The notes under the pieces were generated by a model. The model searched no databases and had not been told where the DNA came from. It saw only the letters and a list, made by a program, of their open reading frames with translations. The position numbers and the translations under genes were made by a program. DNA of 63,088 nt, filler included, from Nemertoderma westbladi (lineage: Eukaryota > Animalia > Xenacoelomorpha), in NCBI GenBank assembly GCA_032718475.1. It is 4 parts of 4 records of this genome, joined end to end, with 100 filler letters (N's around TTAATTAATTAA, not from the genome) between each part and the next. Parts side by side here need not be neighbours in the genome. Positions count along the whole stretch, not along the records: positions 19,353 to 39,863 come from JAUCBJ010000863.1; 3 more parts are not named here. One strand, 5' to 3'. Positions 12,043-62,296 of the stretch are shown here, piece by piece (the first letter of the stretch is position 1; every line of letters begins with the position of its first letter).

Positions 12043-12157
12043 GATTTATTTCAGTATTCAGGTATTTCTTTGATTGTCCTAATTTGAAATTCAGGAAAAG
12101 TAGGGATGGTCAGATAGTACTGTAGTACAGTAGTACCGGACCGCTGGGTACCGGTAC

Positions 12158-17033: not shown

Positions 17034-17393
17034 AAGCCGTTCCCCGTACAGGTATATTGATCCGTGAATAACCAAATCAGCTCACGGATCAATATTCCTG
17101 TTTTCATACAGGAATTTTTGATCCATTCAGAAAGAGTTGTCCCCCACATAATATTACTATCAAGGGGAGCAGGTTTAGTAAAGGAGCAGGTTACATGGAG
17201 GCGTGTTGAGGGAACCAAAACAAAACAATAAACGAAAGTTAACACATGTTACAATATATTATGCAGGTCTTTATAATTGGGTCTTGACTCTTGAGTCTTT
17301 GGAAATATCCAAAATTCCTGTATGAAAACAGCTGATTGAGTGAGTGAGCTGATTGGTTAATTCACGGATCAATATTCCTGTACGGAACGGCTT
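17034..17393. mobile_element. Foldback MITE (~360 bp)
   Basis: aagccgttccccgtacaggtatattgatccgtgaataaccaaatcagctcac is inverted at 17345-17393; inner arms ttttcatacaggaatttt / aaaattcctgtatgaaaa. Confidence 0.75.
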
Positions 17394-17488: not shown

Positions 17489-18996
17489 GGTATTAGTACG
17501 TTTGAACGACACTAGCCAAACAAGCCTAAAATCAGATAAATAATGGTACCGGTACCGGTATAGCAGTATTGTTCACCACCTTGCGGATTGCATGGGTATT
17601 ATTTATTAAGTTCTTTGAAGGGAATGTATTATTTTAATCTACAATATATTACTTACTACTACTATTATTCCTACTATTACTATTATTTACTAGCTTAATT
17701 ATGTAATATTTTAGCTTAATCTATTAGTTTAATTACGATTTACTATGCGTACGTAATCTTAATTACAGTCTACCGTACATACATATTTCTAATATTATAA
17801 TTAATATTTACCCCGACTGAGGGTGTATCTTATTGTAAAAAAATATTACAAGCTAATAACGCTGTTGCGATACGGTTGTTTATTTCATATGTTGGCCCTG
17901 AAAAGGGCCGTTTGGGTTGGTTAAGTCAGGTCATACAGTAGATGGCCCTGAAAAGGGCCGTTTGGGTTGAAGTCAGGTCGTACAGTAGTTGGCCCTGAAA
18001 AGGGCCGTTTGGGTTGGTTAAGGTATAAGGTACAGTATAGACATTCAGCAAGGGTAGTAATGTTTGAAAAGTGCAAGGAGATTTGAGAAAGGTCGGTCGC
18101 GATTTAAAAGTCTCCACCGAAATTCTGCCAGGTGGCCAGCAATAAGTTGCGGTGTTGTGCATTTCTTATTGCGGATGACTGACGTCTTTAAGTGGCCCCA
18201 CATCGACTCTATACGTTGAGTGTGGGTGCCAGTCGCACTCACCCACTCTACCGAATGGTTGACGGTTTCGTGTATGTAGGTCCCTGTTCCATTGGTAGCA
18301 GACCACGGGTTTGTGGCGTTTGTTATGCCAACATTCACACCGCAATACGCAGACCATTCGTCGGACTGTATCTTTGGTTCCACCGGCGACATGTTTCTCC
18401 AAAATAGGACGGAGGGTGTCTGCATCACGATGCAAAACGTGGTAGAGGCGGATGTCGACTTTATTATCTGGACGTTTCCATACCAGTCCAAACACCCACG
18501 GCCCATCCACTGTCGTCCCATAATTAGAACCCACGTTCCAGAACGTGCAGTTCGCTTGTGCTTATTAGCACCGGAGCAACGCCAAACAAGCCGCATGAAT
18601 CCCCTGTCCTTCACCAGCGTAATTTTAGCTTGCGCAGTACAACCCGGAAAAGGACAAAGACGTAGGGTTGGTTGCCCATTTGATTGTAGAGTTCGGGGGA
18701 GAAGTTCCACGCTTTGAGCAAACTCAATAGCGCGCTCCTCAGTCTCGATAAGTTTCCCAATCTCAATGAAATTTAATTCAGCCATAGTCATGATGAGTAC
18801 AGTATACAAACAGTAGGCCAGTAAGTAACAGTACAGTCAATGAGTACAGTATACAAACAGTAGGCCAGTAAGTAACAGTACAGCAGTAGGCCTAACAATA
18901 CTGCTATACCAGTATACCGGTACCGGTAACAATTTTTATCAGTTTCTATCTGATTTCATGATTGTTTGGCTAGTGTCGTTCAAACGTACTAATACC
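17489..18996 (-). mobile_element. Merlin (IS1595/ISXO2-like) DNA transposon, internally deleted
   Basis: 35-bp TIRs ggtattagtacgtttgaacgacactagccaaacaa / ttgtttggctagtgtcgttcaaacgtactaatacc beginning GG; subterminal tandem repeats at 17894-18020 and 18794-18884; no matching TSD found. Confidence 0.85.
18045..18791 (-). pseudogene. ISXO2-like (Merlin) transposase, frameshifted and deleted
   Basis: N-terminal C..C / WRC...R.GTW; middle GPWVFG...RDADTLRPILEKHV..GT in a second frame; C-terminal IQSDEWSAY, HETVNHS.EWV..TGTHTQRIESMWGHLK. Confidence 0.88.
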
Positions 18997-19252: not shown

Positions 19253-19352
19253 NNNNNNNNNNNNNNNNNNNNNNNNNNNNNNNNNNNNNNNNNNNNTTAA
19301 TTAATTAANNNNNNNNNNNNNNNNNNNNNNNNNNNNNNNNNNNNNNNNNNNN
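19253..19352. other. Assembly gap with synthetic TTAATTAATTAA linker
   Basis: 100-nt N run with an identical central linker in all three gaps. Confidence 0.97.
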
Positions 19353-20841
19353 ACCCGACAAGTTTCTGAAGGAGAAGATCAGTTATCAGGAGCATGAAGA
19401 AACCAACAAACAGATGCTGAGACTCTTACAATGTTATGAAAATTCCGATAAGTATTTCCTGTTGTTGAGAAATCCTCAGATGCGTTTAAGGGATCGTTTC
19501 TCTAGCACAATGATAGATGGGTTGATACGTGTTGGAGGAAGGTTAACGAATGCCCCATTATCCTTTGATACTAAGTTCCCCATACTCATTAGAAATCTTT
19601 AAATACAAGTCAAGATGATTGTAGATGTTCACAGCAAACTTTATCATGCTGGTAGAGAACGAGTTCTTAGAGAAATTCGAACTCGCTATTATTTTTATAA
19701 ACCCCGTAGAGCTCTGAACCAAGTTCTTAGGAACTGTATACCCTGTAGGAAAGCATTCAGTAGGCCTTTAACACAGAGAGAGGCAGAATTACCTAGGGAA
19801 CGAGTAAGCTTTTATGAACCACCCTTTACTAATACCGGTGTGGATTTATTTGGCCCTATTGAAGTATATCGTGCTAGGACTATAGTCAAGAGATGGTGTG
19901 TAATCTTTGTTTGTATGACTTGTAGAGCCATCCATCTCGATATGGTGAACGATTTATCTACCAACAGCTTTCTATTAAGCTTACGACAACAGATCGCTCG
20001 CTTTGGCACTAGTAACACGATGAGATCTGATAAGGGAACAAACTTCATTGGTGCCAACAATGAAATCAAAGCTTACGTCAAAGATTGGAACCAAAGACAG
20101 GTGGACGACCAACTACGAGTAACAGCGTCTAGTTGGACCTTCAACACCGCCGACGCCCCTTGGTGGGGAGGAAGTTGGGAGAGATTAATAAGAAGTGTGA
20201 AGACGGCATTTCATTTTATAGTGCCTTGTCGCGCTTATCTCACCGACGAACTTTTGCGGACGTTAATGGAAGAAATCGCCGCCTATCTCAACGAGAGACC
20301 GCTTATGCCAGTCTCATCGAGTCCCGATTCCCTGGAAGCGCTAACACCCGCGCACTTCCTACTGAAGAAACCTGTAGCCATGCTCCCACAATCGGAAATC
20401 ACAGACGGAGACGAATACTGCCGACAAACTTGGCAACTCATGCAGTTGTTATCCCGTCGTTTCGCTGACCATTTCGAAAAACATTATCTGCCCACGCTAC
20501 AACTTCGAACTAAGTGGTTTGCGCAGCAAGAAAACGTCAGCGCTGGAGACATGGTTCTTATTGTGGATGTAGATCTTCCACGTAAGAGGTGGCAGACAGG
20601 TCGTATAATCGAGACCCACATCTCGGATGACGGTTTGGTGCGATCGGTAGAACTCGTCGTCATGCGACGTAACTTCAAGAAACCGGGAATTGTCTTCAAG
20701 ACGCAGCAGCTCAATCGCCCGGTGGGACGTTTATGTTTACTGGAAAGAGACAGAGAACTCTCCGGAAACTATGGGAGACAAGATACTCTTCCCACGACCA
20801 CCTCCCTAATCCAACAAACATCTAGGGACTCCCCAACTTAA
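19353..20841 (+). pseudogene. BEL/Pao LTR-retrotransposon pol 3' part (integrase with HHCC, DDE core and DUF5641-like tail), with a stop/frameshift near 19600
   Basis: GLIRVGGRLTNA..SFDTKFPIL; H...YHAG...C..C; PFTNTGVDLFGP; RAIHLD; MRSDKGTNFIGA; APWWGGSWERLIRSVK; LNERPL; ALTPAHFL; YLPTLQLRTKW; W..GRI...DGLVRSV. Confidence 0.93.
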
Positions 20842-20859
20842 CAACGGCTGGAGTGGGTG

Positions 20860-21348
20860 TGTGACCATATTACTTTATATTTGTATTTGTTTTATTTTTA
20901 TATTTATGTATGTATTATTATGTAATTTTATTTTAATCGTTTTATTTAATTTTATTTAGTAGTATGGTATTTTAGAGATTATTTAGTAAATTAGTGCAAT
21001 ATATATTCGCGTTTATTATTTAATTACGTATATTATATATTTAGTGCGACGGCGAGAAATAATTCTTTTTCTCTTTCCTTACTGTCCGTATCATATTATA
21101 AATACGTGACTACAGTAAGATGAAATATCCGTACTTATTAAAGTACAATAAAGCCACTACTATATTCAAGTATTATTGGTAGGCAGAGTATTAGGAATGC
21201 AAAGTTCAGATCCTCGTGTCTCGGCTAAACCAAGCTCTGGGTAGACCTTGGAAACGACTTGCCTCTTCACACTGACATTGCTTCGTGCGATATTGCTCTC
21301 ATACCGTATATTAAATAATACATATAGTAGCGTGATGTCCCTTTAACA
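20860..21348 (+). mobile_element. Probable 3' LTR of the BEL/Pao element
   Basis: Purine-rich ggctggagtggg (20846-20857) right after the pol stop, then TGT...; tataaa ~21097; aataaa ~21147; ends ...ttaACA at 21348. No second LTR is available to confirm. Confidence 0.5.
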
Positions 21349-21389
21349 GTAGCGTATAACGCAAAATAAATCTGTTAAACCCTTTGACC

Positions 21390-21665
21390 ATCTGTAATTC
21401 TAGTCGATTAAGATATCGCGGCACCCACCGATATACTTGAAAGACAAATTTCTAGAATCAATGGTTAACGTCCCCAGACAAGTTCTGGAATAAACTGGTG
21501 CTCATCCTAAATATTAATTATTAATATTTACAAAAATCTGTCAAATATCAGATCCTTTAAAATTCTAGTCGATTAAGATATCGTAGCACTTACCGATGCT
21601 CTTAAAAGGACAAAATTCCTAGAATCATGGATCCCAGTCCCCAGACATGTTCTGGAATAAAATTG
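21390..21665. repeat. ~165-bp diverged tandem duplication
   Basis: aattctagtcgattaagatatcg...ctagaatca...gtccccagaca.gttctggaataaa occurs twice. Confidence 0.8.
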
Positions 21666-22480
21666 TGTCTATTTAACATTAAATAAAATTTACGGGAATA
21701 AATTTAAATTCATATATTTCAATGAATTTAATAAATTGTCATTTTGTACAATTTATAACATTCCCAAAATTCCATTAATTAATAGATCATGGGAGCGGAG
21801 ATTCACTCTATTAAGTGTATTTGTGTGCGAGAATCTCCAATGTATAGTCAATAGCCGATAAAATTCATAGAATCATGTATAAAGGGGATATTGACCATTA
21901 AAGAATTACTATTAAATAGCATCCCAGATCTGTATGCATGAGAATTACCCTAATTCTACCGCTAGCTTTCCATAATGTCACCATGGCAACAACCACGCTA
22001 GAATTAGAAGTGAGTTAAAAGAACAATAGAAAGCATGCCCCATTGAATAGCATAGGGAATAAATAGCGCACTGCTAGTATCCAAGGATACATAATAAATA
22101 CAGTGACATTCTGGAAGGCACTGACTAACGGACAAATGGCCCGAATGTGTGCAGTTTGTTGCAGTTGTGTTGAATTTGTGCGTTTGTAGGTGAATGATAC
22201 TACTAAGGTGTGTTTACAGTAGCGAGTCGCAATTGTGAAAGTAACCCTAACTCTCCAAGAAGAACCTGCAGTACATCTAAGCCTTTGGGACGGACAGTTA
22301 AGTGACTTGTGCCGGTTATCGTTGTCGTTGTGTAGCTACATCGTTGGCGAAAGCACAGCGACGACGGTACATCGGCGCTGAGGATCTTATACTGTCCGGG
22401 GGCAAAAGAGGGGTAGGCAGCGACGCCCGCTAGCCTAATATATATAGACTCATTATAATATTGATAAACTCATAGCAGAT

Positions 22481-22879
22481 ATGACTGAGTTGATAGAAGA
22501 TGATCTTGGTATCAGGGAGCGATATACTCTACCTTTACAAGCGTTTGTCGATAGCTTGATACACGGCGACGCTGGTCCAACTACTACGGAGGATGATGGT
22601 CGTTATATCGAACCGTCGATGTCCCCGGAGCAACTTACGCGTGAATTGGACTATAGAAAGTTCACCGCTCGCTATACGCATCGTAATGGTACGTATATGG
22701 ACTTCTTAACTACCGGCCACCCTATCGATTTACACGATACGGACGATGTGGATACCGAAAGGGAAATGGTTTTATTTAAATGTCATACCCGGCGGAATCG
22801 GAACAGTAGGCCAGGAATAGAACACGAGAGCTCTGTTCAGAATCAGCTCGAGGGAAGGAACGTGGATGAAGGCTTGTAA
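22481..22879 (+). CDS. Hypothetical acidic 132-aa ORF in the internal region upstream of the zinc-knuckle ORF (possibly truncated)
   Basis: ATG start, coding-like GC content, TATA-like tatatatag ~40 nt upstream; no recognised domain. Confidence 0.4.
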   Translation: MTELIEDDLGIRERYTLPLQAFVDSLIHGDAGPTTTEDDGRYIEPSMSPEQLTRELDYRKFTARYTHRNGTYMDFLTTGHPIDLHDTDDVDTEREMVLFKCHTRRNRNSRPGIEHESSVQNQLEGRNVDEGL

Positions 22880-23528
22880 AGACAAATATAGGAGAACCAC
22901 TTGAGAAGAGACGTGTGTTAATGTCCAGGGTCCATAATGTGAATAGTTTTCCCCGGGGCATGGGTGCTCGCGGGCGGTCTCCTTCAGGAGGCTGTAAATT
23001 TCTCTTCCCTCATCGTTTTCTTGTAATTCTTGTGATCAGTGTCACAATTAAAAGACAAGAATGAATGATGACGTGACGGAAAACTGGTCCATTGTGGTAT
23101 CTTATGGATACTACCCTATATCCTCCCTCCTCTTTACTCCCTTTATCCCTCTATACATCGCTATTGAAAATACAACCCACTTCGTCACACCCTCTCTTCC
23201 CAATGCGCTCGGAACTTTGGGAGACGATCGACCAATCCTAGTTGTATCGTGGTATGGATCATACCACCGCTTAATAAACCTCCCATCCCTTACTGTTAAT
23301 CTGGATGCTCATATTGGTGTCCGCACCTCTTGTCCATGTACCATTCTGTTGATATTTATGATATCAACTTCCACCCTCTCGTTGTTGATTAGAAAATCAA
23401 CCATCAATAATTTCCTTAAGTCCACAACCGTGATACAAGGACTGAAAGGACACGCGGATGGTTTGTGAACAACTGGTACCATTATGTGTCATAAATCTGG
23501 TTGTTCACCCCCTAATCACTGGGGATAA

Positions 23529-25442
23529 ATTCATTTGGAGATAGTCATCGAATGATGTAATCCTCCTACTGAGATCGTATTTCGGAATATTTCTGAATAC
23601 GACATAGGTCTTCCCCTGCTCTCTACCACTACCATCAATGGAGACCTACAGAACGACTTTCGGAATATGGAGAACATTCCATACCCCTTCGTTGATACTC
23701 AGCTGATTGCTCCTTGAGCAGAAGGCCGAGGTTTCTTCCGCACTACGTATGCCAATACACCCAGCGGAATTACCAAAGTACAACGAACCTCCATCGGACA
23801 TCTTGCCTTTCAAGAATACGGATGGAATTTCAAGGTTGGAAATCCTATAAATTACCAACAAGTATACGGAGATCATTATTCTCGTTTATACTTTGATGGA
23901 CCATTGACCGCACCTGGCGCTGTGTATAGCTTTATGAGTGTTCCACTTCGTCCCTCCTTAGCTATATACACGATCTTTGAAAACGCAGCACTTGCCGGTT
24001 GGCTAGCCGATGTGTGCAGTCGTACCATACGCGCCCATCCCTTAATACTCGGAACCAAACTCGCCAAGTTAGATGAACACAATAAATTCATCCGCTTTGA
24101 ATGTTTCAGGCGCTTTCTGACTCCGTTCCGTAACGTTGATAGTCAGTTCAAGGACCGCGCTCTGACCAAACTCAGCCTGAGAGACTCAGCGGCGGAGAAG
24201 CTAAACAGCGCGGGATTTGCCCTTTTTCAGGACGTTTGTATACAGAACTTGCACTCATCTGTTATACAAAGACCCCGAATACCCACGGGTTATTCTGTCG
24301 TCGAAGTTCAGACAGTGGGTCCGCTTGCGGAGACAGCCGCACCTACCTCAGCTATGCAATTGGAAGACGAGCCAATATGCTTAGAAGCTGAAGCGATTCA
24401 GCCTACAGCGCCCCGGAGCAGCGATAACGACTACGTCTTAGAATGGTATCAAGGTCCACAATGTCTCACCGCATACGATTATCGACACGCGAACTATGTT
24501 TCTCGAAAACGTTGTCGATTATGCGCATCGAGAGACCATTTCACTCCTATGGACTCAGACGTACCCTGTTCCTACTTCCACGAACAACCAATGATGGAGA
24601 TATATTGTGCGTATTGCAGACTTAATAACTCTCATATTTTTGCAGTCTGCCCCCAATTTATGACTCAATGCCACCACTGTCAACTTAAAGGACATGCCAG
24701 TTATAATTGCCCCTTTAATCACGATTTAGAGAGCGTAGATGAAATGATTACCCTGCGCTACATCCGAGCTTGGGAAGCTAACGCGGATTTACACTGTGAG
24801 TCCCGTCATCGATACTACCCTGGACGCTCTTACGAGGGAGTTTACGTGTTCCATCCTTATTTATTAGCGTCTGTAGAACAAAAAACACGCGTACCGAGTT
24901 ACGAGCTAATGAAGCGTGTTGGTGAGTGTATTTCCACTAAATTTGTTAGAAGATACCGTAGGAACGTCAATCCTAACGATATTACTTCATACCATTTGAT
25001 CAATTATATCCGTCAAGACCCTGAGTATGGCGACTTATTTATCAACTCGCACCCTGAGTTGCAGGAAGTATCTCGACGGCCCTACGAATATCGAGCCCGA
25101 GAACACGAGCTGGGAAGAACTATTAAACCAAGGAAGTTTCTTACCACCCACGGTCCGCCTACCGCCATTGCCCAGACAACCCGTCAAGGACCCGTAGGAG
25201 CTGCTGTCCTGAGGCGCGCCCTAAAGGCTGTTCGACCTCGCTCCACGGAAGTTGATATCGATCAACCAGGTACCTCGACCGGCGGATATACTGATCGCAA
25301 TCCGAAACCTTCTGATGCAATTGTATTGCACCCTTCACCCCGGAGTTACAGCCCTCCTAGTAAAGTGGCTCGCCCCAAAGAGAAAAGGACTCTTACTAGC
25401 CTCAAAAAACTGCATAAACGCTGTCCGCGTAAGAAAGACTAA
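23529..25442 (+). pseudogene. Copy A of unknown triple-CCHC zinc-knuckle protein; in-frame TGA at 23553 and 23715
   Basis: Colinear with ORF 37733-39508; ATG 23667 (MENIPYPF) and TGA at the W17 codon; the frame continues upstream as IHLEIVIE*CNPPTEIVFRN...GDLQNDFRN. Confidence 0.85.
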
Positions 25443-25520
25443 CTGTTTAGAGTATTTTTATATTTTAGAAACTGTGATTTGTTATATTTTATAGACTTAA
25501 ATCCCATTTTCTGGGAGCGG

Positions 25521-26890
25521 TGTAAAAGCTTTTGCGTCATTAACCGGTTATTTTCCCTTAAAGTACTCTGTAGTTGGTTTGCCAGGCATAAAAAGGCCGT
25601 GTCCTTGCTGTACTGGTGTTTTAGAGGACATAAAAGTCATTTCTTCTGTGTTTGTACTGTATTTGTACTTTAGAGGACATAATCCGCAATCTCGTGACGC
25701 GATAAGCTAGATACTCTTGAAAACAGTGTCGCTACCATGACGACGGCTAACAGCTGATATTGCCACATCGACATTTCTTTGTTTCTTTGTTCTCTCGTTG
25801 TTCGGTTGACCAATCAGAGCGTTTTTTGCCTCTGTGTTGGAGGTGTATACAGAACTCAGTAGTTCAGTGTGTTATGTTTTTGCCTAGAGCCTAAGAACAT
25901 CGGCTTTTGGCACCTCCGTATATCAGCATTCTTTAGCTTTACATTAGTAGGCTTAATTATAGAACGTATATCTGTTATCAAACTAACGAGTTATATATCT
26001 TAACTAATCGAACCATATCATACATATTTTACTTAACATTACTGCTTTTACTGTCGGTTATTCATTATATTGGTTGATGAAATATTATATCGGAATACTG
26101 ATCAATAGTCAGACACCCCGCCTTCTTGATATACTAAAGGTTAGAGAGACCGGTTACAGATAAACGATTGCGACCTATGTTAAGTGGTTTGAAGTAAATC
26201 TAATGCTATTTCATATGCCCAACATAAATTGTCTGTTGCTCTCTTTATACGTGACTAAATTTAGTGAAGGTCGGCAGATTAGTGTGCAGTATTGTGCAGC
26301 ATTGTGTATGATTGTAACTGATAACAAAGCATCTCCTAAAGAATGCGCCATATACGTTAATCTATAGCCTTTTCGTTGTGTCTAGTTTAAGTCATAACTC
26401 TGTTTACATATTTAGAGCGCCACGTCCTAAAGGAACTGTTAATATTTCCCGAAAGTGAATAATATTTGTCAGAGATTATATATTACGATCAGTCGAATAA
26501 TACAGTAGGCTTGCACCATCAATCATTAAGCTCCGAACTCAGTCTCCCGGGTATATCCAACGGGTGAATGATTGCGCATAGACTGGCTTCGGCTAATGTA
26601 GTGTATCAAATACTCGTCATAAAGCTAAAGAATATATATCATCTAAAAGACATTCTAATTTTGGCAGGTTAAACTGTCAAAGGTCTTCAAAAGCGCAAAC
26701 AATTTCCTATCGGAGTAGCAGGCTATACTAACTACTCCGTCATCAACATCACCTTCATCCAATGTTCTGAGTGTATGCAATCTTGGAAATTGTTGAAAGA
26801 AAAATCTATTGAAATAGAAAATTGAAATTGAAAGCAATCGAAAGAGGAGCCTTCGGGTCGCCTCCGACTTCGGCCGACTGTTTGTTTACT
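25521..26890 (+). mobile_element. Putative LTR (copy A, ~1370 bp)
   Basis: Preceded by PPT-like ctgggagcgg; starts TGTAAA; ends TTTAC(t). 5' third diverges from copy B while ~26030-26700 is similar to copy B. Confidence 0.6.
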
Positions 26891-26995
26891 GTAGGTCTAC
26901 CGGTACATTCTGCTGATGAGAAAATAAGTAGGATCAGTTTGTACATCTAATCTTTTGTTATACAATTCCATTATTTAATTTGTCATTTGTGTTCA

Positions 26996-27088
26996 AGCAC
27001 ACACATTGCCAAACAATTATGACGTCACCCGCACGCGGGTTCTAGCACACATTGCCAAACTATTATGACGTCACACGCACGCGGGTTC
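26996..27088 (+). promoter_or_regulatory. 46-bp tandem duplication carrying two perfect CRE palindromes upstream of the cadherin ATG
   Basis: TGACGTCA at 27020-27027 and 27066-27073, ~300-350 bp before ATG 27372. Confidence 0.45.
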
Positions 27089-27371
27089 ACGTAATAGGTA
27101 AATGAGTTCCAATGCCAACTGGAACCAATGTATTTTAATACATACAAGTATAATAAATTGTTACATATAGCCAAATTAATAAATATTTCACTGTATTCCG
27201 TTTAAAATCTCAGATACCATTGTATTAATTAATAAAGTAATTATTACTTATCGTATTACAGTTATATTTAGTGACAATTTATAAATTTAGTGACAGATTA
27301 ACAATAATATCTAATGGTAAATTAAATATAATAATCAGTGTAACTGATATTTAGTTTCAGTTTTATTACTT

Positions 27372-30300
27372 ATGGCTGGTAGACTTTCGGTTATCCTTTT
27401 ATTTCTACTGATAGCAACAGGTATGTAATTACTACAACTGTAAATACTTTAAACGTTTTACAGTATTAATATTAATATTAATATATAGTTAATTTCAAGT
27501 TTTCATTTATTAATATTAAAATATATGAATAAATACATTCATTATTTCTAAATTGTCAGACATCGAACATACAGTTTACATTGAGTTCCAACACTGCATT
27601 AGGCCAAATAATTCCGCAATAGGCACCCCACCACCACCGCACCACCGGTGGTGTATGTACTGATAAACAGCTTGCGGTAACAAAAACCTTTTAAGAACAT
27701 ATTTTTTTAACTGTGTAGGTAGGGAAGGATCGATAACAAAGAAGCAAATCCCATCTCGACGAATTAATTTCCCGCCTCAATGTTAAATTATCAATTTATG
27801 GAAAGGAGCAGGTTACAGTGGCACGTTATTTTAACCAAAACAATAAACTAATCACAATAGAACAGGTTACAGTTTTATTTTTGAGAGTAATCATCTGTTA
27901 TTTGCGTCGAATTACCCCTGGAGAGAGATGGATTTTTATTGCGTCCAGTTTCCTCCTCTATCTGCAATATGTCAGTGCCAATAATCTACAGCTCCTCTTG
28001 TTCATGTTGCTGTAGAATATAATATGATTGTATACAGATGTTATACCAATGTAAAATTTGTTTTACGTTACAGGCGCTAAATGTGCTATCTTATTTGATT
28101 ACGTGACACTCCCAAACGACGGAGATGGGAACTTCCCCAGACAATCTTACTACAAGGAGACCGGTGCGGGAACTATCGTCTACTTTATAGCGACATCCTA
28201 CGCTAGTCCGGCTACTGGAGTAGACTGCGCTATTGAGTCTGTTAAAGATTCTACCAGTTAGTGGATACAACGTGTTATAATTTAATCGTTAAAAAACAAA
28301 CTTTCATTGTAGACAACGTATTTGTAAGTTCTGTGCAGAAAGTAGGCCTACCTACAGTATTCCTACAATATTATGATAAGTTGACAACAGTTGATAATAT
28401 TATTAAGGTCGATTTGTTTTATCCTAGCTTATATTACATTACAGTGGTTTGTCAGTAGATAGTACAGTTAAGTAGGCCTACATTATTTTTATTTTGTAAC
28501 TCTTCATTATCATCACATCTACTGTATGTCTCATTATGGATTCTGTTGAGACATTGTCAGTGGGTTTTACACTTTGTACTATACAATTTAAAGACTATAA
28601 AAACTACTATAAAAACTATTATCTATTCGTATAGCTGCCGATGTATCCGCGAAATTTTCACTGACTGCTGTTGGCGGGACCAATACAATAGGTGACTACG
28701 AACTTAAAACCGTAGCGATCTTCGACTACGATGTTGCCGGCACTCCGTTAAGAAATCCATACGATATAATTATTGCGTTAGTTATTAATGAATCACTTTT
28801 ACTAGCGCAGTGTTGTGTCGCGAACGACAAACAGTATAATAAATAACTTATATGATATTTAAAGAAGTCGTTGTTAAAATATTCGAGAAACATTTGTTAT
28901 CCACGAAACTTAGTGATTCTTAATTTCTTTCGATTTGAAGTCTCCATGTTGCTTAAAAGTTTCTTAATATTTTTTTTAATGGGCCCAGTAAGGGGTGGAG
29001 TGCTTAGGGAGGCGGGCTCATGAAAGACACAATAGTAATACTAGTCTTACTAAATATAATATTAATATTTCCTTCCTTTCAATAATATTTCAATAATATA
29101 TTTAATATTATTTATACATCATGTAAAAACAATGAAAAATACACCAAACAATGTTGTTAGGGATTGTCCAACATTAGCATACCTTTGTACTGTAGCTTAT
29201 TTCCAAGGGGGTCCTTTATGTTACTTGGTTACATATACAATATTACACAAAGACTGTACACTACTACAGTATAGTTAGCTAACCTAAAACTAATAAAATA
29301 AAATTCGCCCCGTGTTAAGAATAACGGGTTTTCACTTTTCGGTCAACATCGACTTTTTATTGTAATTTTATTATATGAGAGACTTTGTATTTTTAGCACT
29401 TATTTCTTCTTACAGTATGTCCTGTACAGATTCTAATTTGTTTATTGGTTTGCGGTTAGATTCTGCAGTCTGTAACTTGGGTTTTTAGTGAAAACCTGGT
29501 ATGCTTCACATGGGAGTAAACTGCAAAGTGAAATATAGTATAAAATTGCTGAAAGTCTGGTTTCCATATTGGCCACATAATGCAAAAGCCAAGCATTTCA
29601 ATACGAGTGGAACATCGTAGTGCCAATTAATTATGTGTTAAATCATGTTTTGCTTTATTAGTTTTTAAACTTTGGCCAATACGAGGGCCCAATTTCTTAT
29701 AAAATAAAATGCGTTAATCCTCTTTTATAATATGGATGAAACCGATAAACTTATATGTTATAGTACATTATGATAATGCTCTTCAAAATAACAACAATAA
29801 AATAAAAACAACAATAAAAACGAAAAATAACAACCGCCCTTATTTGGGCTCGAACCCCGTACCTAGGTTTCAAACTTCCGGTTATCATCAGCCGGGTGTG
29901 TGTCCTAGACAACTGAGCTACCAGGACGGATGGAGATTTATTCGCTATGGAGTGGGCTATCATATGTTTGCCTTTTACAGTCAAAGGAAAGTAAAACGTA
30001 CAAACCGATAAACTATATGGTGTTATCATTCTATGTTAAGATGCAATGACAACCAGGCGAGTGTGGCTAACAAATGCGTAAAAAACGGGGGAACCGGTGC
30101 GGAACCGGACTGCCGGAAAGGCTATCTGGAACTCAACTTCTACAACATTAACGACGAGACACCGGTACTGGCCCCAGGGACCGCAGTCACCTGCACCATC
30201 GACGAAGGTCTCCCAATCCGCACCGACATCACGGCTAAGTGTACGCCCGTAACGACGGCAACGGACCCAGACGATAATAATGATCCGAATTTCAGCGATC

Positions 30301-33300
30301 TGCGATACGGATTCCAGTGTTAGTGGTTTCATCTATGTATGGTTTGTAAGGTACTGCTGCGTAATAATCGAGATCAAATCATTTGGATGACAATTTATCT
30401 GAATTCCGATTTCTTTCAAATTTAGTGTCCCACACATCTTATACTCTAGTTCTCATATTATAGTATCAACCTTTTGAATTTACCGCCAAATATGCCATTA
30501 TGGTGATGGCGATTTTGTGCATAGAGTAGTTTCATAATATCTATTACTTTTATTCCGACCCATTTTCTTTCTATACGTGTACTACAGTGTGCTACTGTTT
30601 GTACTGTATGTACTATATCTTTACTATATTTGATTTTTATTGATTCTATTAGATGCCCCTGGTGATGTTTCCTATTACGCCATCCCGCAAACAGATGTCC
30701 TAAATATATTTACCTTAAAAACAATGGACTATGAGATTACTGGAGAACGGAGTATTAATTACGCTGTTAGTAAAACAGTAGTTAGGGGATGTAAAAAAAA
30801 AAAAAAAAAAAAAAAAGTTAGGGGGATGTAGGGGAGGGGGGGATTGATGTTATTTCATACAGTCTTTACTTAATAAGACTAACAAGCACACACGTCTTAG
30901 ACTCACAAACTGTTGTAAATCAAATACTGTCTACTGTACTCAATTCTCTTCAATTCTACTAAATAATTATTGATATTAATATTGGTCTCGAAAAAAATTT
31001 TCCCTATTTTATTTTGATCAGAAGAGTTAGTGTCATAATTATAATTATTTTCAGTTTGTTGTTAGTGACGGAGTGAATTCTGACACATTGACCATGACCT
31101 TTGACCTACAAGATGTCAATGAGTTCAGACCATATTGTGAACCGATGATTCAGGTCGCAGCTGTAAACGAAAACGTGGCCACAGGTGAGCAACATAGAGG
31201 AACTAACAGGCTAAGTATATAATTTAATGTATCTTTAGTAAAATTTCACGCCAATAACATGACATAACTCGTGTTGTTTTACTCAGATTGAGGGGTAAGT
31301 TGATTGAGGGCGGTACTGTTCAGATTGTTGCTAATGGTTACTTATGGTTTACAGAGCACGACAATTTTACCGAAGATGTCACATTGTTAGTCTGGAAATT
31401 AGTGGCAATTTCTAATGACTAGACTACAGTATACCAAATTATGATAAATTACACAGGGATGTTTTATTGTTTATGTTTTTAGTCGCCAATCTTGGAACTG
31501 TAACGTGCAAAGATATTGATGCCACCAATACCATAACCTATACGTGCTCAAACTGCCCGGCTCAGATTTCAATAGACCCCAGTACGGGAGTACTCAGCGT
31601 CGGTAGTGCGTTTAATTACGAGGCAGATCCGACCACGTATCTGCTAAACATTGTCGCTAAAGACCCCGCAGATGGTGCTGGTACACAAAAATCTACTAGC
31701 GCTATGGTCCGTGTCAATGTAAGTCAGTGATATGGCAGCATATTGGCATTATTAACGAGTCGTTAGTCAGAAGTCGTCAACACAATACTAGTCTCCTTCA
31801 TTTGCCTCTTTGCGTTCGTTCGTTTTTTACCCTTCAGATTCTTTCTAAACTTTTGACGGACTACAATAAGTACCAAGTTTCGTTTAATTTCATCAAGGAA
31901 TAACCGAGTTATTAGCGATCAAAAATTTACGACGACAGACGATGACGACAGACAACTCGTTAATGGCACCCATATGCTAAGCCTTCGCTCACTCGGTGGC
32001 TCGCCCCACATGTCCTACTGCTGTTATTATCAATACACCTGCGAATTCGCAACATTTGCGGTTCTGGAGCCCATAAATTGCAATTTTAAAATTCGTAATC
32101 GAGGATGTTTCTGAAACTAATAACGAAAATTAATAATTAATTATCAGATAAATCCGATGAATGAGGATACAGGTCGGACACTGAAAGTCGCCGACGTTTC
32201 GGTACCGGAAGATCAGACAGTCGGAACGACGATTCTAGACTCGGGAATAACTCTAACTAATACTGATAAAGGAGTCCATGGCACAGTCGCTGCATACAGT
32301 ATCAGTTCTATAGTCCCTAAGGAATGTTAGTTATTAATTAACTAACTAATCCATTTTAATATAGTATAACATTAAAACATATAGCATTCTTTATTATCAC
32401 CATTTAGCTTATGACATGTCCACTTATGAATATGTCCAATATTAAACCGAAAGATAATTGTTATGTTATTTTTAAATTGTTTCTGTTGAAAAGTAACCCT
32501 GAAAATAATGGCTTTACTGTGTTTTAAAATAACCAATAAGTGAAAATGAAACTGACCATAACTTGAATGTAATTCGTGATCAAGAAAAGGAATTACATAG
32601 TGTACTGATAATATTCTTACAAACACACTTAATATTTTCAGCTAACATAGAAATAGACCCCTCCAATGGCAACCTCTACCTGGTTGGTCCTCTTGACTTT
32701 GAGACTACAGCCTTGTATACTGTAAAGATAACCGCTACAATGGTTGACACTGCTGTAACAGTGGAAAGTGATGCATTCACGGTAAATTACATTATACACT
32801 GTTTTTATTTTACATCTAGGCCTACCTACATAGATAAATTGATCATCTTCACCTGCATCAATGTATTATGTAGATTAAACAAACTCGAAATCGCTCAACG
32901 CCCCGTACCTAGATATACCAAGTCCGACGCTCTATCAACTTCGCCACTGCGCCGTACGATGCCGTATTTCGGCTCGCTACGCGGATCTAATATAAAGTTT
33001 ATGGTTAATAGTTCTATAGAGCAACCGGAGGCTACAATAAAGGATGTAGCTACTGTAGCAGCATTCATACAGTGCTAGAGCACTGTCATCAGAGTGGTTG
33101 CTAATTGTGTGAAAGTGATTTCGGTTATAAGAAATCTCGTGTTACAAGAGGGGGTCCAAACCCGGGTGAGTACAAAACCAAGACTGAAGACCTGTACAAA
33201 ACACATGTGTTAACTTTCGTGTATTGTTTTGGTTCCCCCTACACACCTCTGGAATCTGCTCCTTTACTAACCTGATCCTTTAAATTGCAATGGGACCTAA

Positions 33301-36110
33301 CGCTTTGGGACCTAACGCTCTTTGGGACGTAACGCTTTGGGACCTAACGCTCTTTGGGACCTAACGCTTTGGGACCTAACGCTCTTTGGGATGTAACGCT
33401 TTGGGACCTAACGCTCTTTGGGACCTAACGCTTTGGGACCTAACGTTCTTTGGGACCCAACGCTCTTTGGGACCTAACGCTTTGGGACCTAACGCTTTGG
33501 GACCTAACGCTTTGGGACCTAACGTTCTTTGGGACCTAACGCTTTGGGACCTAACGTTCTGTGGGACCTAACGCTCTTTGGGACCTAACGCTTTGGGACC
33601 TAACGCTCTGGGACCTAACGCTTTGGGACCTAACGCTTTGGGACCTAACGTTCTTTGGGACCTAACGCTTTGGGACCTAACGTTCTGTGGGACCTAACGC
33701 TCTTTGGGACCTAACGCTTTGGGACCTAACGCTCTTTGGGATGTAACGCTTTGGGACCTAACGCTCTTTGGGACCTAACGCTTTGGGACCTAACGTTCTT
33801 TGGGACCCAACGCTCTTTGGGACCTAACGCTTTGGGACCTAACGCTTTGGGACCTAACGCTCTGGGACCTAACGCTCTTTGGGACCTAACGCTTTGGGAC
33901 CTAACGTTCTGTGGGACCTAACGCTCTTTGGGACCTAACGCTTTGGGACCTAACGTTCTGTGGGACCTAACGCTCTTTGGGACCTAACGCTTTGGGACCT
34001 AACGCTTTGGGACCTAACGCTCTTTGGGATGTAACGCTTTGGGACCTAACGCTCTTTGGGACCTAACGCTTTGGGACCTAACGTTCTTTGGGACCCAACG
34101 CTCTTTGGGACCTAACGCTTTGGGACCTAACGCTTTGGGACCTAACGCTCTGGGACCTAACGCTCTTTGGGACCTAACGCTTTGGGACCTAACGTTCTTT
34201 AGGACCCAACGCTCTTTGGGACCTAACGCTTTGGGACCTAACGCTCTTTGGGACCTAACGCTTTGGGACCTAACGTTCTTTAGGACCCAACGCTCTTTGG
34301 GACCTAACGCTTTGGGACCTAACGCTCTTTGGGACCTAACGTTCTTTAAGACCTAACGTTCTTTGGGACCTAACGTTCTTTAAGACCTAACGCTTTGGGA
34401 CCTAACGTTCTTTGGGACCCAACGCTCTTTGGGACCTAACGCTTTGGGACCTAACGCTTTGGGACCTAACGCTCTGGGACCTAACGCTCTTTGGGACCTA
34501 ACGCTTTGGGACCTAACGTTCTTTAGGACCCAACGCTCTTTGGGACCTAACGCGACTTTGCTTCTTTGTTTTGTACAGGTTTTGAGTCCTTGTTTGTACT
34601 CACCCTTCCAAACCCTAATTATACTGTCATTATCCTAAACCGAAGTTATAATCTAAGATATTCACTAAATTTTTATTTGATTAAGAGTTTTGTTTAGGGT
34701 TACCAACTAACCAAACCCCAAAACTAACCCCCACCCCCCCCCCCCCCCCCTAACTTACTAATTTTCACCCTTATTTCTATTTTCCGTCCAGATTTAAAAT
34801 AAATTATGTATGTCTTGTAATAATAGTAGTCCTTATGTTAAACCTGAATTATTAAATTGATATTAACAGATAACAGTTACGGATGTGGGTGATGAGATTA
34901 TTGAGACTGTTGATGTAACTAACATAGTTACCGTCATTGAGGGAGGAGGTAAGACAGCTGCTACGTGTTTCGGTGTAAATCCCGCAACAGCAACTGGAGC
35001 AAACGTGAGTGATTTGGGATTTTTTTTATATGCAGTAGGGCCTATCTATTGTGCAGTAAATATATTATTGCCTTCATCTGAAACTGAAGGCAATAATGAC
35101 AAGATTAAATCAAAATATGAAATATGAATAAAATATGACATCAAAATAAAAACAAAATGAAATCTGCAATACATTTATGTAGTTGTATATAAAGGTATTG
35201 AGTGATATTGGTGATACCCCCAGGTGCTAATAGAGTTAATGCTACCATTGGGTTAATATTATTCACCAACTCAGGTTGCTAAGCTACAAGTTAACACAGA
35301 TCTCGACACAAGCGGCACCCATGACTGGAAGATATCATCGGACCCCAGCGGTTACTTCAAGCTCTCGTGCAATGCACTCAACTGCCCCGCTGTCGCCCAG
35401 GCAGCTGGAATATTTATACAGACTCAGGACACCATCGACCTTGAGAAGAGTTAGTCTACAATCAAATTTTATAATCGAAAGTTTATCTCAAATTTATAGG
35501 AATATTATTTGTAATTAAATAAACTGTATATATTAAAAACATCAACATGGGCACAGATGTTAATGTTTTTTTTCCCGATTTTAACATGCAATCAGGAATT
35601 TAAATTGAAATCAATCCATTTGTCTTAACTGATGTGGAATCGTTGAGATCAATGTTTTGCATCGGTATGGTGGGGTTAAGCTACACCATCTAATATCCGA
35701 AACCAAGTTCCCTCAGCAGGAAATCAAGTCCCTGCTTGAGCTAGGTGAGAATTTGTGCCTCACAGATCATAAATCATCAATCGTTTAATTTCACTCTCAG
35801 AGACTGACTCAGACTACTATCGAATTTACGACGAATCACTTTCGTGATCACACAAACACAGTCTATCACTTAATTGATTGTGAGTGAGTTCAACCTAGTG
35901 TTAAATCTTTATAATTTTCTTCATCATTGGTTTTCTTTTATAAATAATAATGTTTGTTTACAATTTAATTTATTGTAGAACCAACCGATGGTGCCTATAG
36001 AGTTATAGTTGAAGTAACTGGCACGCCTGGCGGCACCAGACACGGTACAATGATGACAAACACAGTAACTGTGGCCATACCGGTAACGGCAACCAATGAA
36101 TGGGAACCAA
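27372..36110 (+). CDS. Cadherin-repeat protein, 5' part. Exons 27372-27420, 28074-28256, 28635-28776, 30041-30318, 30653-30765, 31055-31184, 31483-31718, 32148-32325, 32642-32781, 34870-35004, 35275-35449, 35979-36110; about 5 EC repeats; 3' exons not found
   Basis: All introns GT-AG with matching phases. Signal peptide MAGRLSVILLFLLIATGAKCA; cadherin motifs FDYD, NINDETP, TATDPD, MDYE, QDVNEFRP, VNEN, CKDID, IDPSTG, FNYE, VPED, LDFE, IDLE, TNEWEP. Confidence 0.9.
29834..29929 (-). mobile_element. tRNA-derived Pol III element (SINE head-like) in cadherin intron 3, with an internal hammerhead-like motif
   Basis: 7-bp closing stem CCGTCCT/AGGGCGG, box A-like TAGCTCAGTTG, box B GGTTCGAGCCC, T-rich run downstream; too irregular for a functional tRNA. 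Confidence 0.65.
33164..34605. mobile_element. MULE-like MITE containing a minisatellite (cadherin intron 9)
   Basis: ~40-bp imperfect TIRs gggtgagtacaaa...cctgtacaaaaca / tgttttgtacagg...tttgtactcaccc; flanking duplication (g/t)tccaaaccc. Confidence 0.8.
33291..34553. repeat. 16/18-bp tandem array tgggacctaacgct(ct)t with higher-order periodicity
   Basis: Directly visible; the variant gggatgtaacg recurs at ~33388, 33738 and 34026. Confidence 0.97.
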
Positions 36111-36308
36111 GTATGTTAATCCTAAATGTTGTTACTGTATCTCTATTCTATACTACTATACTGTAAATTATGAATATTTGATTATTTATCAACGTATTTA
36201 TATACAATAAAGGTTTTTTATGGTCTGCTTACTCTATGCTGGAGAGATGACATCTGATAACTAATACTATAATAGCCAACAACCAATATTATGAAGAACA
36301 ATTAAATA

Positions 36309-37654
36309 TGTAACTTGTGCTCTTGTTTATTGTTTTGCTTAGAATAGCCTGTCACAGTAACGTGTTCATTTCCGTTGTGGTTTCTAACAGTTGCTGGCTG
36401 CGGTTGTCGGATGTCTAGATATCTTTTATTCCCTTTTTTATGCTACATATATTGTTCGCGCTTTCAGACCTTTGGCAGTTTAACCCGCCAAATTAAGATG
36501 TCTTCTAGATATTAAATCGCTTTTTAGCCTATGACAAGTATTTGATTCACTACACTAGTCGAAACCAATCCGTGCGCGACCATTCACCCGCTGGATATTC
36601 CCGGGAGATTGGGTTCGACGGTTTAATTTTATTGCTATGTAAGCTTAATGTATTATTCGACTGACAGTATTATATAATCTCTGACAATATTATTCACCTT
36701 CGGGAATATTAACAGTTCCTTTAGGACGTGGCGCTTTATCTATATAAACAGAGTTATGACTTAAACTACTCACAACGATATGGCTTAATTATAATTCACA
36801 TATATGGCGCATTCTTTAGGAATTGCTTCTTTAACAGACTCGCTCATACGCAATGCTGCACAATACTGCACACTAATCTGCCAATCTTCACTGATTTTAA
36901 TCACATATAAAAGGAACACGGACTGACTCATGTAGGGTCTATCAAATAACATTAGATTCACTCCAAACCACTTTAACATAAGTCACAATCGTTATTGGTA
37001 ACCTTTCTCTCTTACCTTCGGTATATCAAGAATATTGGGTGTTGGGGTTATTTCTCGTTATTCCAATATAATAATTCATCAACAAATATAATGAATAACC
37101 GACAACAAATAGCAGTATGCAGTATTCACAGATCAATCGTGCCAGTTTGTTTTGATATTTACAGAGTTTAAAGCCAGGTTGTTTGATGCGTAATTGCAGC
37201 CAGTTAAAGGATATATGTCCTTGTAATTAAACCTACTAGTGTTGAGCTAAAAAGCATAAAACATAAAACACTAATAAGCCGTTCTTTCGTGGCTTTGAAA
37301 AACTCGTGACTACTGCTCTATACGAGGATACCAACTCCCTTATTCCACGAAGCTCCCGTTCAACACAGAGAAAGAGCAGTGAGATAGGAAATTTTCAGTT
37401 CAGTACTCTGTGATAGGTCAACATCAAGGATAACTCAAATTCTATTGGGAGATACAAAACAAGGCTATGACGCAACCTCCCTAGGCTTGTTGGCCGATTA
37501 AACAGAGCCCAGATGCCTGCGTACAGCAAATCAGCCAATAAGCTGGTAACTTGCACTATTTTTAGCTGTAGATCACTTTGAGAGTATTCTTAGCGACTGG
37601 GGGGGAACTGGCCAACAAGGCAAACGAATCAGTTATCCCACAAAAGCTTTTACA
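36309..37654 (-). mobile_element. Putative LTR (copy B, 1346 bp)
   Basis: Minus strand: PPT-like ctgggagcgg, then TGTAA...AATAAA-caagagcacaag-TTACA (5-bp inverted termini); 36450-37110 is similar to 26030-26700. Confidence 0.7.
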
Positions 37655-37732
37655 CCGCTCCCAGAAAATGGGATTTAAGTCTATAAAATATACAAAATCA
37701 CAGTTTCTAAAATATAAAAATACTCTAAACAG

Positions 37733-39508
37733 TTAGTCTTTCTTGCGCGGACGGCGTTTACGCAGTTTCTTGAGGCTAGCAAGAGTCCTTTTCTCTTTGG
37801 GGCGAGCCACTTTACGAGGTGGGCTGTAGCTCCTAGGCGAAGGGTGCAATATAATTGCATCAGAAGGTGCAGGGTTACGATCGGTATACCCGCCGGTCGA
37901 GGTACCTGGTTGATTAATATCAACCTCAGTGGAGTGAGGTCTAACGGCCTTTAGAGCGCGTCTCAGGACAGCAGCTCCTACGGGTCCTTGACGGGTCGTC
38001 TGGACACTAGCGGTGGGTAGACCGTGAGTGGTGAGGAACTTTCTCGGTTTAATGGTTCTCTCCAGCTCGCGTTCTCGGGTTCGGTATTCATATGGGCGCC
38101 GAGATACTTCCTGGAGTTCAGGATGCGAGTTCACGAAAATGTCGCCATACTCCGGGTCCTGACGGATAAAATTGATCAGGTGATATGTGGTTATATCATT
38201 AGGGTTAACGTTTCTCAGGTATTTCCTGACAAACTTGGTGGAAATACACTCACCAACACGCTTCATTAACTCGTAACTTGGTACGCGTGTTTTCTGTTCA
38301 ATCGACGCGAATAGATAAGGATGGAACGCGTAAACTCCCTCGTAAGCTCGTCCAGGGTAATAGCGATGTCGGGATTCGCAATGTAAATCGGCGTTCGCTT
38401 CCCAAGCTCGGATGTATCGCAGGGTGATCATCTCGTCTACGCTCTCTAAATCGCGATTAACGGGACAGTTGTAACTTTCGTGTCCTTTAAGTTGGCAGTA
38501 GTGACATTGAGTCATAAATTGTGGGCAGACGGCAAATATATGAGAGTTATTAAGCCGGCAATAAGCACAATATATTTCCATCATCGGTTGTTCGAGGAAA
38601 TAGGAACAAGGTACGCTCGAGTCGAGAGGAGTGAAGTGGTCTCTCGATGCGCATAATCGACAACGTTTTCGGGAAACGTAGTTGGCGTGTCGATAATCGT
38701 ACGCTGTGAGACGCTGTGGACCTTGATACCACTCTATGACATAATCATTGTCACTGCTCCGAGAAGCCGTAGGTTGAATCGCTTCGGATTCCAAGCATAC
38801 TGGTTCATCCTCCAGCTGCATAGACGAAGTTGGTGCGTCGGTTTCCGTAAGTGGACCCACTGTCTGTATTTCCACGACAGAATAACCTGTAGGTATTCGG
38901 GGTCTTTGTATAACAGATGAATGCGAGTTCTGTATACAAACGTCTTGAAACACGGCAAATCCAGCGCTACTCAGTTTCTCCGCAGCTGAGTCTCTAAGAC
39001 TGAGCTTGGTCAGCGCGCGATCTTTGAACTGACTATCGACGTTACGGAACGGAGTCAGAAAGCGCCGGAAACATTCGAAACGTATGAACTTATTGTGTTC
39101 GTCTAACTTGGCGAGTTTAGTTCCAAGTATTAACGGGTGAGCGCGTATGGTACGACTGCACACATCGGCTAGCCAACCGGCAAGTGCTGCGTTTTCAAAG
39201 ATCGTGTATATAGCTAAGGAAGGGCGAAGGGGAACACTCATAAAGCTATATACGGCACCAGGCGCAGTTAATGGTCCATCAAAATATAAACGGGAGTAAT
39301 GATCTCCATATATTTGCTGGTAATTTATAGGATTTCCAACTTTGAAATTCCAACCATATTCTTGAAAGGCAAGATGTCCGATGGATGTCCGTTGTACTTT
39401 AGTAATGCTGCTGGGTGTATTGGCATACATAGTGCGAAAGAAACCTCGGCCTTCGGCCCAAGGAGCAATCAGCTGAGTATCAACGAAAGGGTATGGAATG
39501 TTCTCCAT
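37733..39508 (-). CDS. Copy B of unknown triple-CCHC zinc-knuckle protein (591 aa, basic C-terminus)
   Basis: Open 591-codon frame; CX2CX4HX9C, CX2CX5HX4C, CX2CX4HX4C; tail KKLRKRRPRKKD; many synonymous differences from copy A. Confidence 0.85.
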   Translation of the reverse strand: MENIPYPFVDTQLIAPWAEGRGFFRTMYANTPSSITKVQRTSIGHLAFQEYGWNFKVGNPINYQQIYGDHYSRLYFDGPLTAPGAVYSFMSVPLRPSLAIYTIFENAALAGWLADVCSRTIRAHPLILGTKLAKLDEHNKFIRFECFRRFLTPFRNVDSQFKDRALTKLSLRDSAAEKLSSAGFAVFQDVCIQNSHSSVIQRPRIPTGYSVVEIQTVGPLTETDAPTSSMQLEDEPVCLESEAIQPTASRSSDNDYVIEWYQGPQRLTAYDYRHANYVSRKRCRLCASRDHFTPLDSSVPCSYFLEQPMMEIYCAYCRLNNSHIFAVCPQFMTQCHYCQLKGHESYNCPVNRDLESVDEMITLRYIRAWEANADLHCESRHRYYPGRAYEGVYAFHPYLFASIEQKTRVPSYELMKRVGECISTKFVRKYLRNVNPNDITTYHLINFIRQDPEYGDIFVNSHPELQEVSRRPYEYRTRERELERTIKPRKFLTTHGLPTASVQTTRQGPVGAAVLRRALKAVRPHSTEVDINQPGTSTGGYTDRNPAPSDAIILHPSPRSYSPPRKVARPKEKRTLASLKKLRKRRPRKKD

Positions 39509-39863
39509 ATTCCTGTTGTATGCCTAATATGTCTTCCATTGATGGTAGAGAGCAGGGGAAGACCTATGTCTTGTTCAGAAGTATTCCGAAATACGATCTC
39601 AGTAGGAGGATTGTTACATTCGAGGACTATTTCCAACTGAATTTATCCCCAGTGCGATGAGGTAAACACCAGTTCAAAGATATGTTTGACTCAGTGGTTC
39701 TACATAAGATTTATATCCCCAATCATTAAGGGAGGTGAACAACCAGATTTATGACACATAATGGTACCAGTTGTTCACAAACTATCCGCGTGTCCTTTCA
39801 GTCCTTGTTTCACGGTTGTGGACTTGAGGAAATTAGGAAGTGGTTGATTATCTAATCAAGAAC

Positions 39864-39963
39864 NNNNNNNNNNNNNNNNNNNNNNNNNNNNNNNNNNNNN
39901 NNNNNNNTTAATTAATTAANNNNNNNNNNNNNNNNNNNNNNNNNNNNNNNNNNNNNNNNNNNN
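39864..39963. other. Assembly gap with synthetic linker
   Basis: N run + TTAATTAATTAA. Confidence 0.97.
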
Positions 39964-54530: not shown

Positions 54531-54630
54531 NNNNNNNNNNNNNNNNNNNNNNNNNNNNNNNNNNNNNNNNNNNNTTAATTAATTAANNNNNNNNNNNNNN
54601 NNNNNNNNNNNNNNNNNNNNNNNNNNNNNN
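54531..54630. other. Assembly gap with synthetic linker
   Basis: N run + TTAATTAATTAA. Confidence 0.97.
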
Positions 54631-62291: not shown

Positions 62292-62296
62292 GTATG

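Follow-up and report, generated by a model that had tools for sequence, protein, structure and literature searches.

This report concerns a 63,088-nucleotide stretch of DNA from Nemertoderma westbladi (assembly GCA_032718475.1), hereafter the window, and in particular an open reading frame (ORF) for a soluble protein with three CCHC zinc knuckles, which the window carries in two inverted copies. This knuckle ORF is likely the non-envelope third gene of a large Bel/Pao long terminal repeat (LTR) retrotransposon. In the contig at 19353–39863 (JAUCBJ010000863.1), the end of a pol gene is followed by a spacer with a predicted hairpin, a short ORF, the knuckle ORF, a purine tract and a 1.2-kb unit with TGT..AACA ends, and this arrangement is multi-copy. 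The encoded protein probably binds RNA via its knuckles and the segment behind them, and we tentatively suggest that it is a nuclear factor exporting the element's unspliced genomic RNA, with the hairpin at 22281–22403 as candidate response element. An initial annotation of the window had already postulated that the ORF is under selection, is not env and occupies the 3′ position of a large LTR element, and this view is now backed by the ratio of non-synonymous to synonymous divergence (dN/dS), a Bel/Pao pol end upstream, multi-copy continuity and a remote relative, P0001, in the same slot.

The knuckle ORF and its protein

Copy A (23667–25442, +) and copy B (37733–39508, −, i.e. reading from 39508 to 37733) are inverted with respect to each other and comprise 591 codons each, counted from the first ATG that both have. 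Their alignment is gapless over 1776 nt, with 1547 identical nucleotides (87 %) and 544 of 591 identical amino acids (92 %). The inverted copies of a protein of about 600 amino acids described in the initial annotation are thereby confirmed, with the length set at 591 codons, while the frame given there for copy A (23529–25442) is not open, as in-frame stops are found at 23553, in the longer frame, and at 23715. The latter breaks copy A at codon 17; only copy B is intact. Sequencing reads were considered as assembled contigs, with depth taken from four of 11 listed runs (X1, X3, X4 and X5) and detailed joints from two of these (X4 and X5); the tables comprise the best-supported contigs, their summed depth is not a copy number, and X5 is only guessed to be RNA. 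At codon 17, all contigs listed for X4 (six) and X5 (four) differ from copy A, and the stop is therefore private to this copy.

The knuckle ORF is a real gene under strong purifying selection. Third codon positions carry 173 of the 229 differences between the two copies, which bears out the synonymous excess noticed earlier, and nine of the 14 read differences listed for the ORF. Over the whole ORF, dN was 0.039 and dS 0.65, giving a dN/dS of 0.059 (Fisher p ~1e-80), i.e. not near 1 in a check that the initial annotation had proposed. By region, dN/dS amounted to 0.028 in the N domain, 0.048 in the linker, 0.059 in the knuckles, 0.057 in the post-knuckle segment and 0.117 in the tail, while four of the five other frames gave 1.6–3.0 and the antisense frame sharing third positions gave 0.13. 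Considering a dS of 0.65 and the different 3′ flanks, copies A and B are independent insertions of two subfamilies and not a local inverted duplication.

Copy B is built, in this order, from a conserved N domain (residues 1–200), an acidic linker, three knuckles, the post-knuckle segment and a basic tail. The knuckles (24513–24710 in copy A, 38662–38465 in copy B) have exactly the spacings originally reported, i.e. CX2CX4HX9C (residues 283–301), CX2CX5HX4C (314–328) and CX2CX4HX4C (335–348). The Lys/Arg tail is equally real, with a pI of 11.6, a K/R run at its end and 16 K/R among the last 39 residues. No hydrophobic segment was found over the knuckle protein (best 19-residue Kyte–Doolittle mean 1.19), and it has a single N-glycosylation sequon. 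The Env hallmarks of signal peptide and transmembrane anchor were not seen by hydropathy, a dedicated signal-peptide predictor not having been used. The lack of a hydrophobic segment argues that the protein is not Env, in line with the earlier annotation. Neither the knuckle ORF nor its N domain had a Pfam match, including any Gag family, nuclease or chromatin domain.

Probable linkage to a Bel/Pao pol gene

On the same strand and contig as copy A, and 2826 nt before its ATG, a 412-codon frame at 19603–20841 (+) encodes the 3′ end of a Bel/Pao pol gene, comprising an integrase H2C2 zinc domain, the integrase core and DUF5641 (Pfam Integrase_H2C2, E 1.1e-7; DUF5641, E 2.5e-20). We take DUF5641 to be a mark of Bel/Pao elements. 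The initial annotation, which had advised a search for an upstream gag-pol, had not mentioned this frame. Third codon positions account for 17 of the 22 read differences listed here. The contig starts inside pol (19353) and ends inside both elements.

Based on read contigs, pol end, spacer, knuckle ORF and LTR-like unit probably form one element. All bins from 19353 to 26807 are multi-copy in X1 and X3, with minima of 18,557 and 13,020 vs 36 and 21 at the single-copy stretch 27163–27517. The multi-copy spacer (20842–22480, +), which leads from pol to the accessory ORFs, is covered by bridging contigs: position 21348 is crossed with more than 150 nt on each side in X4 (21169–21506, depth 1049) and in X5 (21168–21506, depth 52.7), and the contigs listed at 20866 extend 52 and 104 nt to their ends and so span 20860. 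Furthermore, an X4 contig of depth 2918 joins 22795 to 24414, a joint in a deleted derivative that ties the spacer to the knuckle ORF. Subfamilies among the read contigs are 10–20 % apart.

The first part of the spacer (20860–21348), with its TGT..AACA ends, was considered as a working 3′ LTR but is not supported as such. A working end should branch into many flanks; instead, X4 and X5 contigs cross both ends unbroken at multi-copy depth, and this part is therefore probably not a working LTR. It has no similarity to the LTR-like unit at 25521–26701 beyond AT-rich matches, and no copy of the 1.2-kb unit was found between pol and the knuckle ORF. Of note, cover in X4 is far deeper at 22300–22795, 24414–24780 and 25206–25650, corresponding to a high-copy internally deleted derivative.

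Purine tract, LTR-like unit and leader

A polypurine-tract-like 10-mer, identical in copy A (25511–25520, +) and copy B (37655–37664, −), lies 69 nt past each stop and directly before a TGT, much as the initial annotation had placed it (about 70 nt). The LTR-like unit which then begins measures 1181 bp in copy A (25521–26701, +) and 1202 bp in copy B (36453–37654, −), both with TGT..AACA ends, as the homology between the copies past the TGT ends exactly at a common AACA; the previous estimates of ~1370 and 1346 bp were too long. In a global alignment, the first ~550 bp of the two units are 45–60 % identical and the rest 76–89 %. In X4, a contig of depth 411 has foreign sequence attached exactly at 25521, as expected for a true terminus. 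An X4 contig of depth 411 also leads from the middle of the unit (26306) back to 25521 with nine letters between, i.e. an amplified nested or tandem LTR.

Two other ends were discarded. The AATAAA..TTACA with which copy B had been thought to close is likely not an LTR end, since it matches a short dispersed repeat present four times in the window. This repeat of ~80 bp, ending AATAAA..GTTACA, is found at 17174–17253, 27795–27873, 33216–33287 and 36309–36385 and at very high copy in reads; in X4, 32 loose ends precede the copy at 27800 and 58 follow it, with many unrelated flanks. Position 26884, which has 12 loose ends behind it in X4, was not accepted as LTR end because copy B is without that stretch and X5 depth is already down there; it is possibly a longer end of the unit in subfamily A.

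Upstream of the ORF, both copies share a leader (23381–23666, + in copy A; 39509–39863, − in copy B, up to the contig end), with 88 % identity between the copies, stops in the frames read and no signal of selection in any frame. Shortly before the ATG of copy A lie a pyrimidine tract and an AG that may represent a splice acceptor. On the opposite strand, broken frames upstream of the knuckle ATG (23000–23660, −, and 39520–39863, +) look protein-like by eye; no synonymous excess was found in these frames. In copy B, this antisense stretch contains 76 extra nt enclosed by short direct repeats; read on that strand, this insertion has GT..AG-like ends.

Predicted spacer hairpin and short ORF

Among 82 windows of 150 nt scanned over 20700–26800, 22275–22424 was the sole outlier (z −5.68; runner-up −3.15). 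It holds a predicted long imperfect RNA hairpin of 49 bp with many G-U pairs at 22281–22403 (+), for which the sense strand had a z-score of −5.75, reached by 0 of 200 shuffles, and the antisense strand one of −2.06. This much better folding in sense points to structure at the RNA level. Inspection by eye suggests that the predicted pairing is preserved both in the difference listed most often, at 22300, and in a variant with its loose end before 22358. Rfam had no matches on 19353–39863, and none on 21300–23700 at E≤1. The predicted hairpin is a candidate cis element, i.e. a response element, packaging signal or small-RNA precursor.

The spacer is followed by a multi-copy ORF of 132 codons (22481–22879, +) with no Pfam match at E≤10, possibly a second accessory ORF or exon. 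Within the spacer, a direct repeat of ~105 bp (21396–21500 and 21561–21667) is 82 % identical.

Relatives of the knuckle protein

A full HMMER scan over 1.84 billion representatives returned one match, P0001 (633 amino acids, E 3.4e-4, 29 % identity), a nameless public protein from a singleton cluster in which the knuckle trio and the post-knuckle motif are present twice. The post-knuckle segment alone scored 50 against the second repeat of P0001 vs 24.3±4.5 in shuffles, a value reached by 0 of 2000. P0001 and its locus L001, a 3.7-kb contig, thus resemble the N. westbladi element in the knuckle trio, the post-knuckle motif and the succession of stop (2025 in L001), purine tract and TGT (2073), but differ in the duplicated module and an unrelated N terminus. 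Past the TGT, no long sense ORF occurs in L001 for ~1.3 kb; a different acidic ORF then starts at 3390 and continues beyond the contig end. This layout, with 123 nt upstream only, would fit the order ORF3, polypurine tract (PPT), LTR, leader and gag. Within it, 2073–2970 is a candidate LTR of ~0.9 kb, with a candidate primer site starting TGG near 2963.

No match to copy B was obtained in a word-indexed protein search, in which P0001 or alignment A1 as query returned only P0001. Viral contigs held no relative of copy B, alignment A1 or the integrase, genome contigs none of A1, and sequence searches of the PDB gave nothing significant. In the Atlas, the knuckle region resembled eukaryotic proteins with multiple CCHC motifs, among them AIR2-like clusters (0.77–0.87, leads only), while residues 1–200 had no usable match. 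A DEDDy-like look of the N terminus of P0001 was not supported, since this part had no Pfam match. A confident match to a known Gag, DNA-transposon or host protein, named beforehand as an outcome that would speak against the initial annotation, was not obtained in the Pfam and HMMER searches.

Comparison with known elements

Non-env ORF3s are already known from bdelloid elements and from Cer1, and a soluble triple-knuckle ORF3 in Bel/Pao would be a variant thereof. CERV of Cer1, a Ty3/gypsy element of Caenorhabditis elegans, has a Cys-rich finger and a motif like a nuclear localization signal (NLS), and unspliced Cer1 RNA depends on it for export, according to the available part of PMC10309623. 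As compared with that description, the knuckle ORF is also placed between pol and a 3′ LTR-like unit, subject to the caveat on linkage discussed below, and also combines a Cys-rich element with a basic NLS-like motif; in contrast, CERV has a C4 loop in a Ty3/gypsy element, while here three CCHC knuckles occur in a likely Bel/Pao element. Protein and HMMER searches with copy B gave no match to CERV, which itself (H, M and G domains) was not compared directly. The likeness proposed here is one of working mode, and homology is not claimed.

In the bdelloid LTR elements Juno and Vesta, the available text of PMC5408684 describes non-env ORF3s of DEDDy, GDSL and coiled-coil type. These resemble the knuckle ORF as captured accessory genes in the env slot without a membrane anchor, whereas no DEDDy or SGNH hydrolase domain was found in the latter by Pfam. 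Moreover, intragenomic ORF3 variation in bdelloids is mostly neutral according to the same portion of that paper, in contrast to the strong purifying selection between copies A and B.

The ICTV profile of the Belpaoviridae (PMC8742986) lists only gag, pol and env-like genes, with LTRs of 0.2–1.2 kb and genomes of 4.2–10 kb. The N. westbladi element agrees with this family in its integrase with DUF5641, a PPT of ~10 nt and an LTR-like unit of 1181/1202 bp with TG..CA ends, and differs in the 4.7 kb between pol and this unit, with hairpin, short ORF and soluble knuckle ORF. The positions of a paired 5′ LTR, a tRNA-Arg/Gly primer-binding site, a target-site duplication and gag, protease, reverse transcriptase (RT) and RNase H fall outside the contig. 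The triple box of Bel/Pao Gag, given in the accessible section of PMC554778 as CX2CX3-4HX4C, CX2CX2-4HX4-5C and CX2-4CX3HX4H, differs from the knuckle protein, in which the first finger has HX9C, the second CX5H and the third a Cys at its end.

A triple-CCHC ORF3 in Bel/Pao was not found in the literature searched, mostly without subscription journals, Repbase and supplements. The available text of PMC3118150 mentions env alone, that of PMC6338049 held nothing of relevance, and that of a Daphnia LTR survey (PMC2996953) contained no such ORF for the terms searched.

Possible function and alternative explanations

The absence of a hydrophobic segment, the acidic linker, knuckles that depart from the Gag box, the basic tail and the pyrimidine tract with AG suggest an accessory protein, translated from a subgenomic RNA, that binds RNA in the nucleus. 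In the mechanism proposed here, the knuckle protein would be made from a spliced or subgenomic RNA, enter the nucleus by means of its K/R tail and bind the element's unspliced genomic RNA, with the hairpin at 22281–22403 as candidate target; it would then promote nuclear exit of the genomic RNA, the role of CERV in Cer1 and of Rev in lentiviruses. How unspliced genomic RNA is exported and silencing escaped in animal germ lines is understood for few LTR elements, with CERV of Cer1 as the worked example. If true, our proposal would provide a second example, apparently of independent origin, from a family for which only an env-like third gene has been described, and the intact copy B together with the hairpin make it directly testable. 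It is tempting to go further and to speculate that this Bel/Pao lineage became ‘complex’ independently, with a pair resembling Rev and its response element, and that LTR elements of distant hosts retain the knuckle module in the same slot, as an accessory family not recognised before, but this extension is rather doubtful.

Several observations weigh against the export factor and the element it is assigned to. Just one homologous protein was found, with an E of 3.4e-4; its first repeat fails in the post-knuckle comparison (711 of 2000 shuffles reach the score), the test segment was picked after the BLAST match was seen, and the N termini of the two proteins are unrelated (190 of 500 shuffles). 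L001 shows nothing upstream of P0001, all searches were without a sequence link to CERV or Rev, and the single-sequence AlphaFold models (mean pLDDT 34.1 and 32.7) are too low to use. As for linkage, no single contig spans pol to the LTR-like unit, and 22903–23612 is at single-copy depth or zero in X4 and X5 (15 and 8; 0 and 1.8), indicating that most copies differ there. The pol stop is followed by a purine-rich run and TGT (20860), where a Bel/Pao 3′ LTR would normally lie, the X5 depth over 20746–21414 exceeds that over pol, and X1 may be the sample behind the window's own sequence.

Within the same architecture, the protein might instead counter host silencing by the piRNA pathway or nuclear RNA decay, coating RNA or mimicking adaptors of the AIR2/TRAMP type, which we consider unlikely. 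The AIR2-like clusters among the Atlas leads and the bdelloid ORF3s, which include DEDDy nucleases with a silencing role discussed in the available part of PMC5408684, would suit such an antagonist, as would high copy number combined with strong conservation, which fit a host-facing factor. However, dN is very low (0.014–0.058), without an arms-race signature between copies A and B, Pfam gave no nuclease or chromatin domain, and the DEDDy-like look of P0001 is unsupported.

A second nucleocapsid-like chaperone, acting in the cytoplasm in dimerisation, packaging or reverse transcription with the hairpin as packaging signal, has a similarly low probability. CCHC knuckles are the nucleocapsid motif, PDB searches with P0001 gave weak matches to, among others, NCp10 and HIV NC (E 1.3–2.9, not significant), and X4 cover is deep both at the hairpin and in the parts that the deleted derivative retains. 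On the other hand, the part of PMC554778 cited above already places a triple Cys-His box in Bel/Pao Gag, and a chaperone would leave both the 200-residue N domain, the most conserved part, and the NLS-like tail unexplained.

It is improbable that a distinct non-autonomous LTR element (gag-only or ORF-only) harbours the knuckle ORF, or that the latter is part of a composite with an upstream Bel/Pao copy ending at 21348. Such a boundary would be in keeping with the purine-rich run after the pol stop, with the TGT (20860) and AACA (21348) behind it and with the low X4/X5 cover at 22903–23612, and the contig end cuts off the upstream region of copy B. Against this stand the unbroken multi-copy contigs over 20860 and 21348 in two studies, the absence of the 1.2-kb unit, as a 5′ copy, from the stretch between the pol end and the knuckle ORF, and a different acidic ORF after the LTR-like unit in L001. 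The gag-only alternative raised in the initial annotation is likewise disfavoured by knuckles whose spacing is unlike that of Bel/Pao Gag, the third finger of which ends in His, by the lack of a Gag match in Pfam and by an integrase upstream without an intervening LTR-like unit. Finally, a host origin of the ORF, as a gene family or as a captured gene fragment beside repeats, with which purifying selection would be compatible, is highly improbable given the multi-copy depth, deleted derivatives and subfamilies 10–20 % apart, the purine tract and TG..CA unit in both copies (purine tract and TGT in L001), and no host homologue among the 1.84 billion representatives.

Other features of the window

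The window consists of four joined contigs, separated by 100-base N linkers (19253–19352, 39864–39963 and 54531–54630) with a central six-frame stop palindrome, and also carries DPF-family, PGAP2IP and cadherin genes, a LINE and a DDE transposase. The DPF/d4-family PHD gene (10660–12045, −; 461 codons) and the PGAP2IP/CWH43-like gene (2812–4950, −; 712 codons) each occupy one uninterrupted frame, which may reflect an intron-poor genome or retrocopies. The LINE is represented by an ORF2 of 1016 uninterrupted codons with endonuclease and RT (13145–16195, −). ISXO2/IS1595-like transposase frames (18045–18836) lie between 60-bp inverted repeats at 17489–18996, an element which we presume to be Merlin-like. 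Satellite or minisatellite arrays start at 7724 (29-bp unit) and occupy 33291–34553 (15/17-bp units) and 62263–63063 (31-bp unit).

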